Source: a virus. Taken from it: a stretch of DNA of 64,000 nucleotides. Location of the stretch: the IMG/VR virus record IMGVR_UViG_3300017917_001903, positions 22,857 to 86,856 of that record; one strand, given 5' to 3'. The position numbers and the translations under genes were made by a program. The notes under the pieces are model-generated. The model saw only the letters and a list, made by a program, of their open reading frames with translations, had not been told where the DNA came from and did no database searches. This document shows positions 138-37,108 of the stretch, piece after piece; position 1 is the first letter of the stretch; each line of letters begins with the position of its first letter.

Positions 138-581
138 TTACTTACACCAACTCTGTTTGGCTTCGCCGTAATACTCACGTGCATAGCCCTTGCTGATTAG
201 CAGGCCACGTAGACTTTGTCCATCGATGATTACATCGCCTAGTACACGACCACCATACTTGTCCCAATCCATTAGAACAATCTGTAGCTTCTTTGCACCG
301 GCAATTGAATCTTTGGTAAACTTAGTTGCTTCTTGGCCACGTGCATCTTCGCTAGGGCACATAGCTCTGTGGCCTTTTTCTGGTGTGTCTACACCAAACA
401 CACGAATGCTTAGTTCTTTCTTAAGAGGTTCAGGCAACCATGGCGCGGCAAACGCAACTGTGTCACCATCAATAACTCTTAGTATTGTAGCATCGTATGT
501 TACACCTGGCTTCTGCTTCTGTGCGAATGCTGGTGTTGCTGACACTAGTAGGGCCGCTACTAGCATAATTTGTTTGATCAT
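138..581 (-). CDS. Thermonuclease (staphylococcal nuclease family) with signal peptide
   Basis: RVIDGDT, IRVFGVDTPE and DKYGGRVLG SNase motifs; hydrophobic N-terminus ending AFA; start moved to the ATG at 581 after an AGGGG RBS. Confidence 0.9.
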   Translation of the reverse strand: MIKQIMLVAALLVSATPAFAQKQKPGVTYDATILRVIDGDTVAFAAPWLPEPLKKELSIRVFGVDTPEKGHRAMCPSEDARGQEATKFTKDSIAGAKKLQIVLMDWDKYGGRVLGDVIIDGQSLRGLLISKGYAREYYGEAKQSWCK

Positions 582-585
582 AAAA

Positions 586-630
586 ATACCCCTGTGTGCT
601 TTATTGTTATATTTATGCACACAGGGGTAT
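586..630 (-). promoter_or_regulatory. 14-bp hairpin covering the nuclease RBS, with a late promoter (CATAAATA) at the loop
   Basis: ATACCCCTGTGTGC / GCACACAGGGGTAT perfect inverted repeat ending 4 nt before the ATG. Confidence 0.7.
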
Positions 631-636
631 CTAAAG

Positions 637-1191
637 TTAACTCATCTTATGGAATGAGTGGTTTCCAATTGTAGCAGTTCTAATAAAGTGTCTGCTCCAA
701 TCCGGATTTACTATGTTATAATTAAAATAATGTGTTGCACCATGGGTAGGGTCGCGAGTCCTACCTGATAAAACTTGAAATGCAATACGCATACTTTTAA
801 TCCATTCGTCATGGCTTCTGATGCGATCAGAATTACCATCACAGATCCAGCTGAATTGACAACTGCCTCCGATACGTTGGTAAACAACGCCACAAACTGA
901 TTTTGGAAATCTATGATGTGCTGCCCTGTTTAGTGTAACATGGGCTACAGCCTTCATTCCGCGCTCAGATTCGCCGCGGGCTTCAAAGTATACATTTTTA
1001 GCAAGACACATAAGTTGAGTTTTATCTATCGTGCTTACACTCTCATTATTTTTTACCCTATTGGTAATGAGCCCTTGCTCTAACTCAACTCTAGTTTGAG
1101 CTATTGCTGGATCAATACCTTTAAGCATTAAAAATGACATCAACGCGAATAACGCTACTGCTATTAATGCTTTTGTTCTTGACTTGGGCAT
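637..1191 (-). CDS. Cell wall hydrolase, SleB/Hydrolase_2 family
   Basis: CLAKNVYFEARGE, CQFSW, GATHYF, IGNHSF; N-terminal TM/signal. Confidence 0.9.
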   Translation of the reverse strand: MPKSRTKALIAVALFALMSFLMLKGIDPAIAQTRVELEQGLITNRVKNNESVSTIDKTQLMCLAKNVYFEARGESERGMKAVAHVTLNRAAHHRFPKSVCGVVYQRIGGSCQFSWICDGNSDRIRSHDEWIKSMRIAFQVLSGRTRDPTHGATHYFNYNIVNPDWSRHFIRTATIGNHSFHKMS

Positions 1192-31918: not shown

Positions 31919-32533
31919 TTATGCTAACCAACTAGCATACTTTTTAGTTTTTTCAGCACGATCGTCTAAACCGTGTGTTCCACCATTGATGCGCTTTGTT
32001 AGCTCTAGGATAGCGGCATCGTTTACACCTTTATCACAGATAGCCCATAGCTTATTTGTTTCAAAGAAGAACATAGCACTTTCAAAAGCATACTTAGATG
32101 CAACAACATCTGGATTAGTCATTACTTCTGGATCACCGATGTATTTTGAAAACGCTTCGTAGTTGCTCTTACCTGTTAGCTGAATAGCACCTCGGCCGCG
32201 GAACTTGTAACCATCGCCTGATGCTTCCGGACCATTGCCCATTCTGCCACCGTATACACGGTTAGCAATCATTTCTGGCTTACGCTCATACTTAGCGGCT
32301 GTAGCGGCATCTGGAAAATACTTCTTAAAGATACCTAGTAAGCCTTGTGCGCCGTAGTTTAGGTTTTCGTTGAATGTTTTAAATCCGCCCGACTCATGAG
32401 CGCACTGTGCAAAGAAGTGTGCTGCTCTAGCATCACTTAGTTTGTAAAATGCTTGTGCAGCCTTTAGTGTACCAGGACCCCAAGCACCATCTGCTGTAGC
32501 ACCAACTTTTTCTTGTAGAATTTTTACTGACAT
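31919..32533 (-). CDS. GH19 endolysin with short PG-binding N-terminus
   Basis: ADGAWGPGT; AQCAHESGGF, ENLNY, FRGRGAIQLTG, TKRINGG. Confidence 0.9.
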   Translation of the reverse strand: MSVKILQEKVGATADGAWGPGTLKAAQAFYKLSDARAAHFFAQCAHESGGFKTFNENLNYGAQGLLGIFKKYFPDAATAAKYERKPEMIANRVYGGRMGNGPEASGDGYKFRGRGAIQLTGKSNYEAFSKYIGDPEVMTNPDVVASKYAFESAMFFFETNKLWAICDKGVNDAAILELTKRINGGTHGLDDRAEKTKKYASWLA

Positions 32534-32542
32534 ATGTGCTCC

Positions 32543-33043
32543 TTATAGCTTTTTCCAAGCATCTGTAGCATCAAAGTCATTGGTTGGTAGATACTTAGTT
32601 GATGAACCGTCTTTCTTAGCGATTAGTTTTTGTTTACGGTTTCCACCACCCTTCTTAATAGATGCGTGTACCCACCCCGAGTTCTTATCACCCTCTACAT
32701 AAAATTCTAGGATAACTTGGTCAAACTCTAGGTTTTCAGAAACCCAGTCTGCAACAACCTTGTTGCTGATGCCTTGGATTTCAAAGTCAACAGCTTCACC
32801 GTTAACGTGCTGACTTGTTGTTGAACCACCAACTGCCTTGTTTAATGCTGGGCAGCGATAGCTTGAATTGATTGTTATTGGTTTACCAAAATGAGCGCGA
32901 GCTGGCTCAAGGATCTTCTCGCAAACATAACGCATGTTTTCGAGGTGTTCAGGTGTGGGTGTGTTTGCAATACCCTTAGCTTTTGCTGTTGGGCTTGCTG
33001 TAAGCTCTTCAACTGTGAAGTGTTCAGTTAATTTTGTAGCCAT
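32543..33043 (-). CDS. Peptidase M15A (Zn peptidoglycan peptidase)
   Basis: INSSYRCPALN..VGG...SQH..GEAVD, WVHAS. Confidence 0.88.
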   Translation of the reverse strand: MATKLTEHFTVEELTASPTAKAKGIANTPTPEHLENMRYVCEKILEPARAHFGKPITINSSYRCPALNKAVGGSTTSQHVNGEAVDFEIQGISNKVVADWVSENLEFDQVILEFYVEGDKNSGWVHASIKKGGGNRKQKLIAKKDGSSTKYLPTNDFDATDAWKKL

Positions 33044-33104: not shown

Positions 33105-33198
33105 TACTCGGTTTATCTCCGTCCGGTCGACACGGACTTGATCCTACTCATTGCCATCGCTGTGCGACAAACCTTACACCGAAAGGTAGGGCGGCAAA
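33105..33198. ncRNA. Candidate structured RNA directly 3' of tRNA-Thr
   Basis: TTGCC/GGCAA, ACC-TTTC-GGT, GTCGC/GCGAT and GTCCG/CGGAC stems; possible GGTTT/AAACC pseudoknot. Confidence 0.45.
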
Positions 33199-33201
33199 TT
33201 C

Positions 33202-33277
33202 TGGTGCCCTCACCATGATTCGAACACGGGACCTACTGATTACAAATCAGTTGCTCTACCAGCTGAGCTATAAGGGC
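33202..33277 (-). tRNA. tRNA-Thr (UGU)
   Basis: GCCCTTA...ACTGATTTGTAATCAGT...TGAGGGCACCA. Confidence 0.95.
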
Positions 33278-33904: not shown

Positions 33905-33973
33905 TTTTATTTTCCTTATTAAAAAGCAGAAGTATTAGTTTCTGCTAATATATTTATAGGGAAATTTTTACAA

Positions 33974-34430
33974 GTGCGATTTTTTCTGTTGCTAGGAAAA
34001 ATCGCAAACCCCGGAGAATTACGCTGCTAGAGCGTAATCACCATATGCAAAGTCATTATCGTTTGCAGTTACTTTTTTTGGCACTTTGCCAGTCAATCAG
34101 TCTCGGCATTCCTATTCCGCGTCAATCGATCCTATTTCAGGCCCATCATAAAAAAACTGCTGCTAGCGCAAGAAAAATAGCAAATGCAAGTAATGCTCTA
34201 CCCCAATACTCTTGGTCGCTTTCATTGGGAATACTGCGACCATAATATTTGTCTACTATCTTGTGCCATTCTGCTAATTCCTTGTCCGAGAGTGTCCCAG
34301 GAAAGTGATAGCCTCTCCAATATAAACGATTCTCTTCCTCAGTCATAGCAATTTCCTTATGGTGGACCTGCCCGGTACTGCCCCGGGGTCTTGCCGCTTT
34401 TATTGTCAGCTGTCAACAACTGATGTATTA
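33974..34430 (-). ncRNA. ssrA: Circularly permuted two-piece tmRNA (acceptor piece about 34360-34430; coding piece about 33974-34144; tag ANDNDFAYGDYALAA at 34019-34066)
   Basis: CCCGG-GGCAGTA-CCGGG-CAGGTCC-ACCA lies upstream of GGGCCTG-AAATAGGATCGA; 7-bp acceptor stem with G3:U70; tag begins GCA AAC GAT AAT and ends ALAA-stop. Confidence 0.92.
34146..34346 (-). CDS. 66-aa C-terminally anchored membrane protein inside the tmRNA intervening segment
   Basis: CCA-TAAGGAAATTGCT-ATG; TGA ends 1 nt before tmRNA G1; C-terminal ALLAFAIFLALAAVFL. Confidence 0.65.
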   Translation of the reverse strand: MTEEENRLYWRGYHFPGTLSDKELAEWHKIVDKYYGRSIPNESDQEYWGRALLAFAIFLALAAVFL

Positions 34431-35044
34431 TTTAGTATTGTAATTACGTCCTCAGCAAATTTATAGTGTGCAAGTTTTCCAGGATGCTCATTGTCTAACG
34501 CTGGAGAAAAATTAAGTGATATATCATTCATAAACACTTTTTCTATTTTAGCTGTAGACCAACTAAATTTAACTATCATTCTCTTAGAAACTAAAAAGTG
34601 TAAAACTTTAATACCACGTTTTTTAAAATGTAAATCAGCATACTCAATTCTAGTATAAAGGTCAACGTTGGCATCATAGTCATCATATAGTGTATAAAAA
34701 TGTTTAGTCGCTGGATCATCTGAATCAGCAGGAATGAAACGTTTAAATTTATTGGTAATGTGTGCATCTGCAGATTGTACAATGCAGGATCGTTCAGGGT
34801 ACGTCCAAAGTATAACCACAATGTCATCATCTTGAAAAGCAAAGTTTTGTATCTTAAAAAGTATCTCTTTATTACTTGCGCCCGGAAAACTTGTGTTTAT
34901 ACATTCTCTTTTAAGATGCTTTGCAACCATAGCTGGCCAAGCAAACGAACTAGGTTTACTAAGAGGCTTTTTTGCAACATGATCCCAACAGTCTGGTAAG
35001 CCGTGACCATATGTTAGACTGCATCCAAAGGTAATTAATCTCAT
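34406..35044 (-). CDS. SGNH/GDSL-like hydrolase-fold protein
   Basis: FGCSLTYG, PGASN, D.EHPG..AH. Confidence 0.65.
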   Translation of the reverse strand: MRLITFGCSLTYGHGLPDCWDHVAKKPLSKPSSFAWPAMVAKHLKRECINTSFPGASNKEILFKIQNFAFQDDDIVVILWTYPERSCIVQSADAHITNKFKRFIPADSDDPATKHFYTLYDDYDANVDLYTRIEYADLHFKKRGIKVLHFLVSKRMIVKFSWSTAKIEKVFMNDISLNFSPALDNEHPGKLAHYKFAEDVITILNNTSVVDS

Positions 35045-36933: not shown

Positions 36934-37016
36934 TGGTGCCCCAGGAGGGACTCGAACCCCCACCCTTTCGGAGCGGATTTTGAGTCCGCTGCGTCTACCA
37001 ATTTCACCACTGGGGC
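36934..37016 (-). tRNA. tRNA-Leu (CAA)
   Basis: GCCCCAG...GCGGACTCAAAATCCGC...CTGGGGCACCA. Confidence 0.94.
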
Positions 37017-37108
37017 TGGTACCTCGGGCCGGAGTCGAACCGACATTGGCCAATTATCTGTTGCACACGGGATATAAATCCGCTGTTTTACCGTTAAACT
37101 ACCGAGGC
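37017..37108 (-). tRNA. tRNA with UAU anticodon (Ile) and 22-nt variable arm
   Basis: GCCTCGG/CCGAGGT-ACCA; GTTT/AAAC D stem; GCGGA-TTTATAT-CCCGT; GTCGG-TTCGACT-CCGGC. Confidence 0.8.

Follow-up and report, generated by a model that had tools for sequence, protein, structure and literature searches.

A protein-coding gene, kept under strong purifying selection, almost certainly lies within the intervening segment (IVS) of a permuted, two-piece tmRNA gene of a freshwater phage, as judged from the way its alleles vary. We think it reasonably probable that this IVS is a cassette slot closed by a stem, and that the gene inside it is translated from the nascent tmRNA precursor, before the stem locks the ribosome binding site (RBS).

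A permuted tmRNA gene in a large freshwater phage

The stretch of DNA analysed, 64 kb long and called the window below, is part of an 86.8-kb IMG/VR record of a freshwater phage, with a completeness estimate of 25%. The record carries genes for ribonucleotide reductase and DNA ligase, two endolysin genes and eight dispersed tRNAs, which points to a large phage. On the minus strand, ARAGORN reports a ‘Permuted’ tmRNA at 33928-34452 with the tag ANDNDFAYGDYALAA. The locus is also matched from end to end by two Rfam models, RF04321 (tmRNA_permuted) with 91.6 bits for a cut-off of 47 (model 1-213 of 213, span 34019-34421) and RF01849 (alpha_tmRNA) with 85.2 bits for a cut-off of 50 (model 1-355 of 355). 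A preliminary description of this DNA had called the tmRNA permuted and placed it on the minus strand, in agreement with ARAGORN and both models, and its positions for CCA (34360), ATG (34346) and G1 (34144) are all correct, as is its placing of TAAGGA right after CCA (34359-34354) and of the TGA 1 nt before G1 (34148-34146). The features of the locus, in the order in which they are read except for the first, are the following.

33973..34459, minus strand: whole permuted (two-piece) tmRNA gene, alpha-proteobacterial type (RF01849, RF04321, ARAGORN)
34407..34422, minus strand: 5' hairpin of the acceptor piece, CAGUUG-UUGA-CAGCUG (sequence, RF01849 alignment)
34360..34398, minus strand: 3' tRNA-like domain, with T-arm, acceptor strand CAGGUCC, discriminator A and CCA (ARAGORN gene positions 55-93)
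34145..34359, minus strand: IVS, 215 nt, expected to be missing from the mature tmRNA as is known for the family (between the ARAGORN 3' and 5' tRNA domains; unaligned insert in both Rfam models)
34347..34359, minus strand: 5' strand of the predicted closing stem, UAAGGAAAUUGCU, which includes AAGGA (13 bp with 34161-34149; 0% divergence over 13 loci)
34146..34346, minus strand: gene for a 66-aa protein, ATG 34346, TGA 34148-34146 (8 intact alleles, dN/dS, homologues, AlphaFold2)
34149..34161, minus strand: 3' strand of the predicted closing stem, AGCAGUUUUUUUA, coinciding with the final four codons (A-V-F-L) and one further base
34145..34148, minus strand: UGAU tail, source of the stop codon and opposite the ACCA end in the predicted precursor helix
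34118..34144, minus strand: 5' tRNA-like domain of the coding piece, G1 = 34144, acceptor strand GGGCCUG (ARAGORN gene positions 309-335, Rfam pairing)
34019..34066, minus strand: tag reading frame, ANDNDFAYGDYALAA plus stop (ARAGORN)
33925..33946, minus strand: terminator-like hairpin followed by a T run, directly after the tmRNA 3' end

The circular permutation is apparent from the ARAGORN domain table, where the T-arm and the 3' acceptor strand with its CCA stand upstream of the 5' acceptor strand. The acceptor stem is formed across the two pieces, GGGCCUG pairing with CAGGUCC, and G3 is opposite U, the alanine identity. A tag frame is expected to have a GCA resume codon and to end in a hydrophobic ...ALAA degradation signal followed by a stop; ANDNDFAYGDYALAA at 34066-34019 has this form, and relatives carry a second tag allele, ANDNFAYEELALAA. 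Divergence over 13 loci is 1.5% in the acceptor piece and 3.8% in the coding piece, with none (0%) in the 13 nt that lead from CCA to the ATG. That the tmRNA pieces differ by 1.5-4%, against a dS of about 1 in the ORF between them, argues for selection on the RNA itself, and the two-piece tmRNA gene of the window phage looks functional. No SmpB gene was found in the 86.8-kb record, a result of little weight as the record is a 25% fragment, and the phage tmRNA presumably uses the SmpB of the host. Among GenBank phages, blastn found nothing that matched the tmRNA region.

The intervening segment contains a conserved reading frame

Read 5' to 3' on the minus strand, the IVS consists of UAAGGAAAUUGCU, an ORF of 66 codons beginning with AUG (34346), its UGA (34148-34146), and U (34145), the one nucleotide that separates the stop codon from G1 (34144). 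TAAGGA (34359-34354) follows directly after CCA, and a spacing of 7 nt separates the Shine-Dalgarno sequence (SD) AAGGA (34358-34354) from the ATG. On its plus strand, too, the region has chance ORFs, with 54-66 codons.

A word-indexed protein search returned seven protein clusters with 78-94% identity, all of 64-66 aa. The ORF is carried by one IMG/VR contig and eleven metagenome contigs, and on every contig of sufficient length it lies within the same permuted tmRNA. Its full length is available at 11 loci, which amount to 8 distinct nucleotide alleles, and all 66 codons are intact in each of them. Variable columns number 20, 10 and 44 at first, second and third codon positions, so that third positions vary in 44 of the 66 codons. 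Nei-Gojobori means over the 8 alleles are 0.09 for dN and 1.0 for dS, a ratio of 0.09, as compared with dN/dS of 1.1 and 1.7 in the two shifted frames, which contain 2-6 stops. When the IVS of L295, an 84%-identical allele, was shuffled, an ORF of at least 66 codons arose in only 0.2% of the shuffles. The 66-codon ORF singled out in the preliminary description is thus almost certainly a real gene (8 intact alleles, dN/dS 0.09); stops or frameshifts in homologous segments, which that description had named as evidence to the contrary, number 0 in the 8 alleles.

The ORF diverges by 16% and the outer flanks by about 45%. Such flanks around a conserved tmRNA and ORF suggest that the two move as one module in mosaic surroundings. 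Judging from these comparisons, the tmRNA and the ORF are both under selection, in different ways.

A small, probably tail-anchored protein

Residues A51-L66 of the protein are all apolar. AlphaFold2 (pLDDT 86) predicts helices at 3-14, 21-35 and 42-65, two short N-terminal ones and a hydrophobic C-terminal one, and the C-terminal membrane helix anticipated in the preliminary description finds its counterpart in the last of these. The 66-residue product is probably a tail-anchored membrane protein.

By exhaustive profile search, ten remote homologue clusters of 64-72 aa were found, which have in common the motif LYWxGxxFPGTL...E..W and a hydrophobic tail. One cluster of the ten could be located on DNA: this homologue (L136/L137, 45% identity) is a free-standing phage gene, tmRNA-free within 1.2 kb. 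The protein family therefore exists independently of the tmRNA, and came to occupy the spacer. The 66-aa protein had no match in Pfam or PHROGs, hit unnamed clusters only in the ESM Atlas (scores at most 0.85), and gave nothing below E 0.5 with Foldseek against viral structures.

Three identifications were considered and rejected. A reading as a holin or lysis protein was prompted by two endolysin genes that the window carries 1.1-2.2 kb downstream; the C-terminus is purely apolar, devoid of a charged tail, no holin of PHROGs or Pfam is matched, and the neighbours of the relatives differ. An intron-borne homing-endonuclease ORF was set aside as well, given the lack of a Pfam or PHROG match and of any intron model among the Rfam hits. 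Finally, the likeness of the C-terminal LALAA to an ssrA tag was dismissed, other alleles reading LVLVAVFL.

A stem closes the intervening segment

UAAGGAAAUUGCU and AGCAGUUUUUUUA pair perfectly over 13 bp, with a predicted energy of -10.9 kcal/mol, and this closing stem is present in both the MFE and the centroid folds of the IVS. The fold of the whole IVS is somewhat better than that of shuffles (z = -2.1). No allele shows a change in the last four codons, although two thirds of the third positions vary in the rest of the gene; this is in keeping with a double duty in coding and in the stem. As the stem never varies in the family of the window, what supports it are the other cassettes and the thermodynamic prediction.

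Pairing was scored in IVSs of at least 30 nt, between the first ten positions and the ten positions before the tail. The phage set, 61 distinct IVSs among which 37 different 5' strands occur, gave a mean of 9.5 pairs out of 10, versus 7.4 ± 0.12 with permuted partners, and none of 500 permutations reached the observed value. Stem sequences seen include TAAACAC/GTGTTTA, TAATTAC/GTAATTA and GGACAGACAGG/CCTGTCTGTCT, among others. Since the sequences differ freely and pairing is kept, this is true covariation. The UGAU that follows the stem is found in 51 of 66 phage IVSs, with an ORF or without one, versus 5 of 60 bacterial ones.

In the precursor, acceptor stem, ACCA/UGAU junction and closing stem are predicted to form a single helix of -30.5 kcal/mol, in which three of the four tail positions are paired. 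An RBS right after CCA and a stop 1 nt before G1, two properties of the gene, are thus also structural parts of the precursor. AAGGA is predicted to be unpaired with a probability, P(unpaired), of 0.3-0.96 when the transcript ends at 34175, short of the 3' end of the ORF, and of ~0 once the precursor is complete.

A probable slot for small genes in phages

Phage loci were gathered in two phage samples by means of a coding-piece motif, followed by ARAGORN. In every one of the 15 distinct phage IVSs of at least 150 nt, an ORF fills at least 70% of the IVS (shuffle p at most 0.037 in each case), and these ORFs belong to about 11 unrelated families. Several ORFs, that of L030 for example, share the design of the window: AAGGA is part of the stem, the start codon comes 7 nt after it, and the tail supplies the stop. 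A second arrangement is that of L085, L070 and L056, where the ORF lies in the loop, with its own RBS, and stops just before the 3' strand. Such ORFs look constrained wherever a second allele is available: L126 and L022 compare with a dN/dS of 0.15, L030 and L278 share 48% identity and all four Cys, and L032 and L104 share MKNPLV...WSICADI. The L085 ORF matches DUF2061 over its full length (E 1.8e-4, just under the Pfam cut-off). Two ORFs of long IVSs, L124 and L303, have TTG starts and look less protein-like.

On the backbone of the window (GGTCCACCA...GGGCCTGAMATA), 26 different spacers of 27-215 nt were found. Three pairs of loci on this backbone have the same tag, with one spacer filled and the other empty. 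L111 and L002, for instance, have the same tag, with acceptor pieces 98% and coding pieces 90% identical; the L111 spacer is a 71-nt segment with a different stem and no ORF. This comparison indicates that the exchanged unit is the whole stem-closed hairpin, and the tmRNA halves, from their sequences, are the obvious candidates for the homology arms of cassette exchange. In a bacterial control, the same motif yielded 66 permuted tmRNAs, with IVSs of 0-48 nt and 0 ORFs.

From these surveys, the phage IVS is very likely a general cassette slot for small genes. The preliminary description had asked whether phage IVSs carry cassettes with an RBS and an ORF; all 15 of at least 150 nt hold an ORF, and some others, such as that of L111, are empty.

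Transcription signals

Directly upstream of the tmRNA we found no convincing promoter. The stop codon of the upstream ORF (34406-35044) falls within the 5' hairpin of the acceptor piece (34407..34422), so read-through from upstream genes is possible. At the other end, L002 has a clearer terminator at the same place as the hairpin of the window at 33946-33925. Within the ORF, the minus strand has two weak promoter-like matches (9/12), one at 34346-34319 and the other at 34269-34242. TATGAT before G1 was considered as a -10 box for the coding piece and rejected, because the start would fall inside the acceptor strand.

Parts of the stretch occur in six freshwater metatranscriptomes, and four were aligned to it. 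Two studies contributed contigs, X17 and X19, that extend from the acceptor piece into the ORF; X16 stops at 34131, 13 nt into the coding piece, with adapter sequence; and X18 has the same flanks around a different spacer of 280 nt. These contigs are of low depth and come from RNA libraries that may contain DNA. We treat them as weak hints, which establish neither transcription, nor RNA ends, nor the absence of an RNA.

Possible translation before processing

During transcription, the acceptor piece and the RBS would be made about 200 nt ahead of their pairing partner, which would leave a period in which the RBS is free and ribosomes could bind the nascent precursor. The predicted drop in P(unpaired) of AAGGA, from 0.3-0.96 to ~0, favours translation at this nascent stage. 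During termination at the UGA (34148-34146), the ribosome would sit over G1 and the bases that follow it, that is, the 5' acceptor strand, and until it left, acceptor-stem folding and RNase P cleavage would have to wait. Once the last ribosome had left, the continuous helix would form and shut the RBS, and RNase P and the 3'-end enzymes would then excise the spacer, freeing the two tmRNA pieces. In this way the spacer would allow a brief burst of translation from each transcript ahead of the stable-RNA stage.

We infer this order, translation and then processing, from the geometry of the locus and from predicted folding. The single transcript would probably be a messenger first and a stable-RNA precursor second; that translation both precedes and gates the processing of the tmRNA is, in our estimate, an even bet. 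The stem of -10.9 kcal/mol is rich in A-U and G-U pairs and ribosomes might open it, in which case folded or excised RNA might be translated. More tentatively, and with clearly less than even chances, the spacer would be an expression slot swappable by recombination in which translation and tmRNA maturation are mechanically coupled, the translation status gating the supply of tmRNA. If such coupling is true, each precursor would first yield a small membrane protein, in a timed burst, and only afterwards a ribosome-rescue RNA.

Processing might instead come first, the excised 215-nt spacer then acting as a monocistronic mRNA with a 13-nt leader, a 1-nt trailer and paired ends that resist exonucleases. 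The two processing sites do bracket the RBS, ORF and stop precisely, pairing between its two ends could stabilise the excised RNA, and the stop would lie 1 nt from the 3' end after the RNase P cut. In that same folded form, however, the SD would be fully paired (predicted P(unpaired) ~0). tRNA 3' maturation proceeds by an endonuclease cut just downstream of CCA, then exonuclease trimming; trimming beside the CCA would remove or damage the RBS, which starts 2 nt after it. Nor was a free 215-nt species evident among the low-depth metatranscriptome contigs. We hold this order of events to be rather unlikely. The preliminary description had suggested that maturation would release a ready-made monocistronic mRNA, a claim left unsupported in that form by an SD locked in a 13-bp stem with a predicted P(unpaired) of ~0. 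The locked SD favours translation before folding and processing, closer to the other option raised there, that of ribosomes gating the tmRNA.

The remaining explanations concern the nature of the gene and of its transcript, and each receives a much lower probability from us. That the protein is a partner in trans-translation, either modulating tmRNA and SmpB or being itself made from a nearly non-stop message and tagged, is improbable. The gene and the tmRNA are linked at 11 of 11 full loci in spite of mosaic flanks, and with 1 nt left after the stop once RNase P has cut, a competition between release factor and tmRNA is conceivable. Yet the same slot on near-identical backbones holds unrelated genes or nothing, the 45%-identical homologue stands free of any tmRNA within 1.2 kb, and the protein bears no similarity to SmpB or to a known family. 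The link between a phage membrane protein and trans-translation drawn in the preliminary description is thus not supported: with unrelated or empty slots and a free-standing homologue, the linkage looks like the use of an expression slot and not like a functional partnership. Interchangeable content of this kind suggests an accessory phage gene in a well-transcribed niche. It is more improbable still that an ordinary gene lies between two separately transcribed RNA genes, with the promoter of the coding piece inside the ORF and no single precursor. The weak promoter-like matches (9/12) within the ORF could be read in this sense, but neither site would start transcription at G1, and a covarying closing stem that continues the acceptor stem makes sense only on a single transcript. 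The RNA-library contigs of two studies that run from the acceptor piece into the ORF are a weak hint in the same direction, and two-piece tmRNAs are described as stemming from one precursor (PMC11915505, PMC9004378). As for the ORF being a non-coding accident in a spacer conserved as RNA alone, we give it hardly any credence. Chance ORFs of 54-66 codons on the plus strand of the same region and the z of -2.1 of the IVS fold are compatible with it; a dN/dS of 0.09 at a dS of about 1, third positions varying in 44 of 66 codons, 0 stops in 8 alleles against 2-6 in the other frames, and remote protein homologues, one of them free-standing, all speak against it.

Comparison with known systems

Phage two-piece tmRNAs are known from aquatic myophages, among them the OM43 phage Melnitz and the pelagimyophages; of the 133 unique tmRNA structures obtained from 402 phages, 53 have been assigned to the two-piece type (PMC9004378). 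The tmRNA of the window resembles those of Melnitz, of pelagimyophages and other permuted tmRNAs in its order of acceptor piece, IVS and coding piece, its alpha type and its ANDN...ALAA tag. Like the former two, it comes from the aquatic phage host range and is set among phage tRNAs. Published permuted tmRNAs differ in that their IVS is treated as non-coding, whereas the IVS of the window encodes a selected protein; its 215 nt also contrast with the at most 48 nt of the 66 bacterial permuted tmRNAs. In a tmRNA database paper of 2025, the IVS is defined as ‘absent in mature tmRNA’; as contents of IVSs this paper mentions only a tRNA-Ala gene plus a repeat element, from two MAGs, and the phrase ‘open reading’ is absent from it (PMC11915505). 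In the ssrA of Melnitz, a glutamine riboswitch has been placed in the 3' domain (PMC9004378). A full-text literature search, with most subscription journals outside its coverage, found no description of a protein gene in the IVS of a two-piece tmRNA. The feature is thus a member of the permuted-tmRNA family whose spacer does something undescribed for the family.

Some tmRNA genes are interrupted by group I introns, certain ones with homing-endonuclease genes (PMC11915505). Their likeness to the window is a protein gene in a part removed from the mature RNA. The spacer of the window, unlike such introns, is cut by tRNA-end processing and not spliced, and is placed between the ends and not in the T-loop. 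The proteins of phage IVSs also differ from those of intron ORFs, being small membrane or secreted peptides that lack an endonuclease signature.

The IVS, elsewhere treated as a disposable spacer, would be a coding platform in many freshwater and marine phages. It is a new hiding place for small genes, which gene callers that mask RNA genes will miss. It also offers a natural case in which RNA folding, translation and stable-RNA processing would compete on one transcript, and a compact model, with the RBS within a stem and the stop within the RNase P leader.

In the dual-function bacterial RNAs SgrS/SgrT and RNAIII/hld, the same mature molecule regulates and encodes. They share with the locus of the window a single transcript with a non-coding and a coding role. 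Unlike in SgrS and RNAIII, the ORF of the window is wholly between CCA and G1, outside both mature pieces, and its two roles are predicted to follow each other in time.

Phage tRNA clusters have small ORFs interspersed, and T4-type phages carry mobile gene cassettes flanked by stem-loops (PeSLs); in both, accessory genes are co-transcribed with stable RNAs and freed by RNase P or RNase E. The slot described here is like them in that conserved flanks allow cassettes to be exchanged by recombination. It differs from PeSLs in that the RBS and the stop of the cassette belong to the predicted precursor helix of the tmRNA, and in that the cassette sits inside a single RNA gene, with the tmRNA halves as its putative homology arms. 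The halves of a conserved RNA gene thus point to such a role in cassette exchange between phages.

Possible recombination within the tmRNA gene

Two alleles of the tag, ANDNDFAYGDYALAA and ANDNFAYEELALAA, were found in the tmRNA coding piece of the window (34019-34066, minus strand) and in the same region of six loci from related phages (L002, L004, L007, L009-L011), the second allele having TGA as its final stop. The 3' end of the tmRNA gene, with its terminator, also exists in two versions among these seven sequences. Both the tag alleles and the terminator versions are reassorted relative to the alleles of the ORF carried in the spacer, in tmRNAs that are otherwise near-identical. Such shuffling suggests that recombination took place within the tmRNA gene.

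On the upstream side, a 212-aa ORF with weak GDSL-lipase similarity (34406-35044, minus strand) has its TGA within the hairpin with which the tmRNA gene opens (34407-34422). In relatives the upstream genes are wholly different and are joined to the tmRNA at the same point.

Other contents of the spacer

A group of phage tmRNAs has a spacer of about 120 nt (120 nt in L052, L068, L096, L098 and L129; 115-118 nt in L039 and L040), in which the closing stem formed by the spacer ends is present and the longest ORF does not exceed 8 codons (shuffle p about 0.8). This spacer is conserved between tmRNAs with different tags, and it may contain a structured RNA in place of a gene. A contig from X18, a freshwater metatranscriptome run, aligns to window positions 34056-34158 and 34356-34409, with tmRNA flanks as in the window; between them lie 280 different letters, versus 197 in the window. 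Judged by its sequence, this insert is another, longer cassette in the same tmRNA slot.

The spacers of two further loci, L032 (1499-1630, minus strand) and L104, contain AAGGAG and, at position 14, an ATG or GTG that starts a short frame of 19-23 codons. It overlaps, in a different reading frame, the start of a conserved 39-44-aa membrane ORF that has a separate RBS, GGGGG. Possibly the short frame is an upstream ORF, or the overlap serves to couple the two frames.

Other RNA elements

The related contig L002 carries a GOLLD RNA (544-1006, plus strand; RF02032, 187.5 bits) about 1.9 kb upstream of its tmRNA and ORF module, with a tRNA-Lys(ctt) embedded in it (607-681). No GOLLD was found in the window sequence with Rfam models. 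The following elements and neighbouring genes were located in the window.

31919-32533, GH19-type endolysin, directly after the M15-type endolysin ORF
32543-33043, M15-type endolysin ORF
33152-33196, minus strand, COG2908 RNA motif (RF02939, 70.3 bits)
33202-33277, tRNA-Thr
36934-37016, minus strand, tRNA-Leu(caa)
37017-37108, minus strand, tRNA-Ile(tat)

The two last tRNAs (36934-37108) adjoin directly, with a spacer of 0 nt, and tRNA-Ile(tat), at 92 nt, is unusually long for a tRNA. The COG2908 cis-regulatory motif has the tRNA-Thr and the M15-type endolysin ORF as its two neighbours, which is an unusual location for it.
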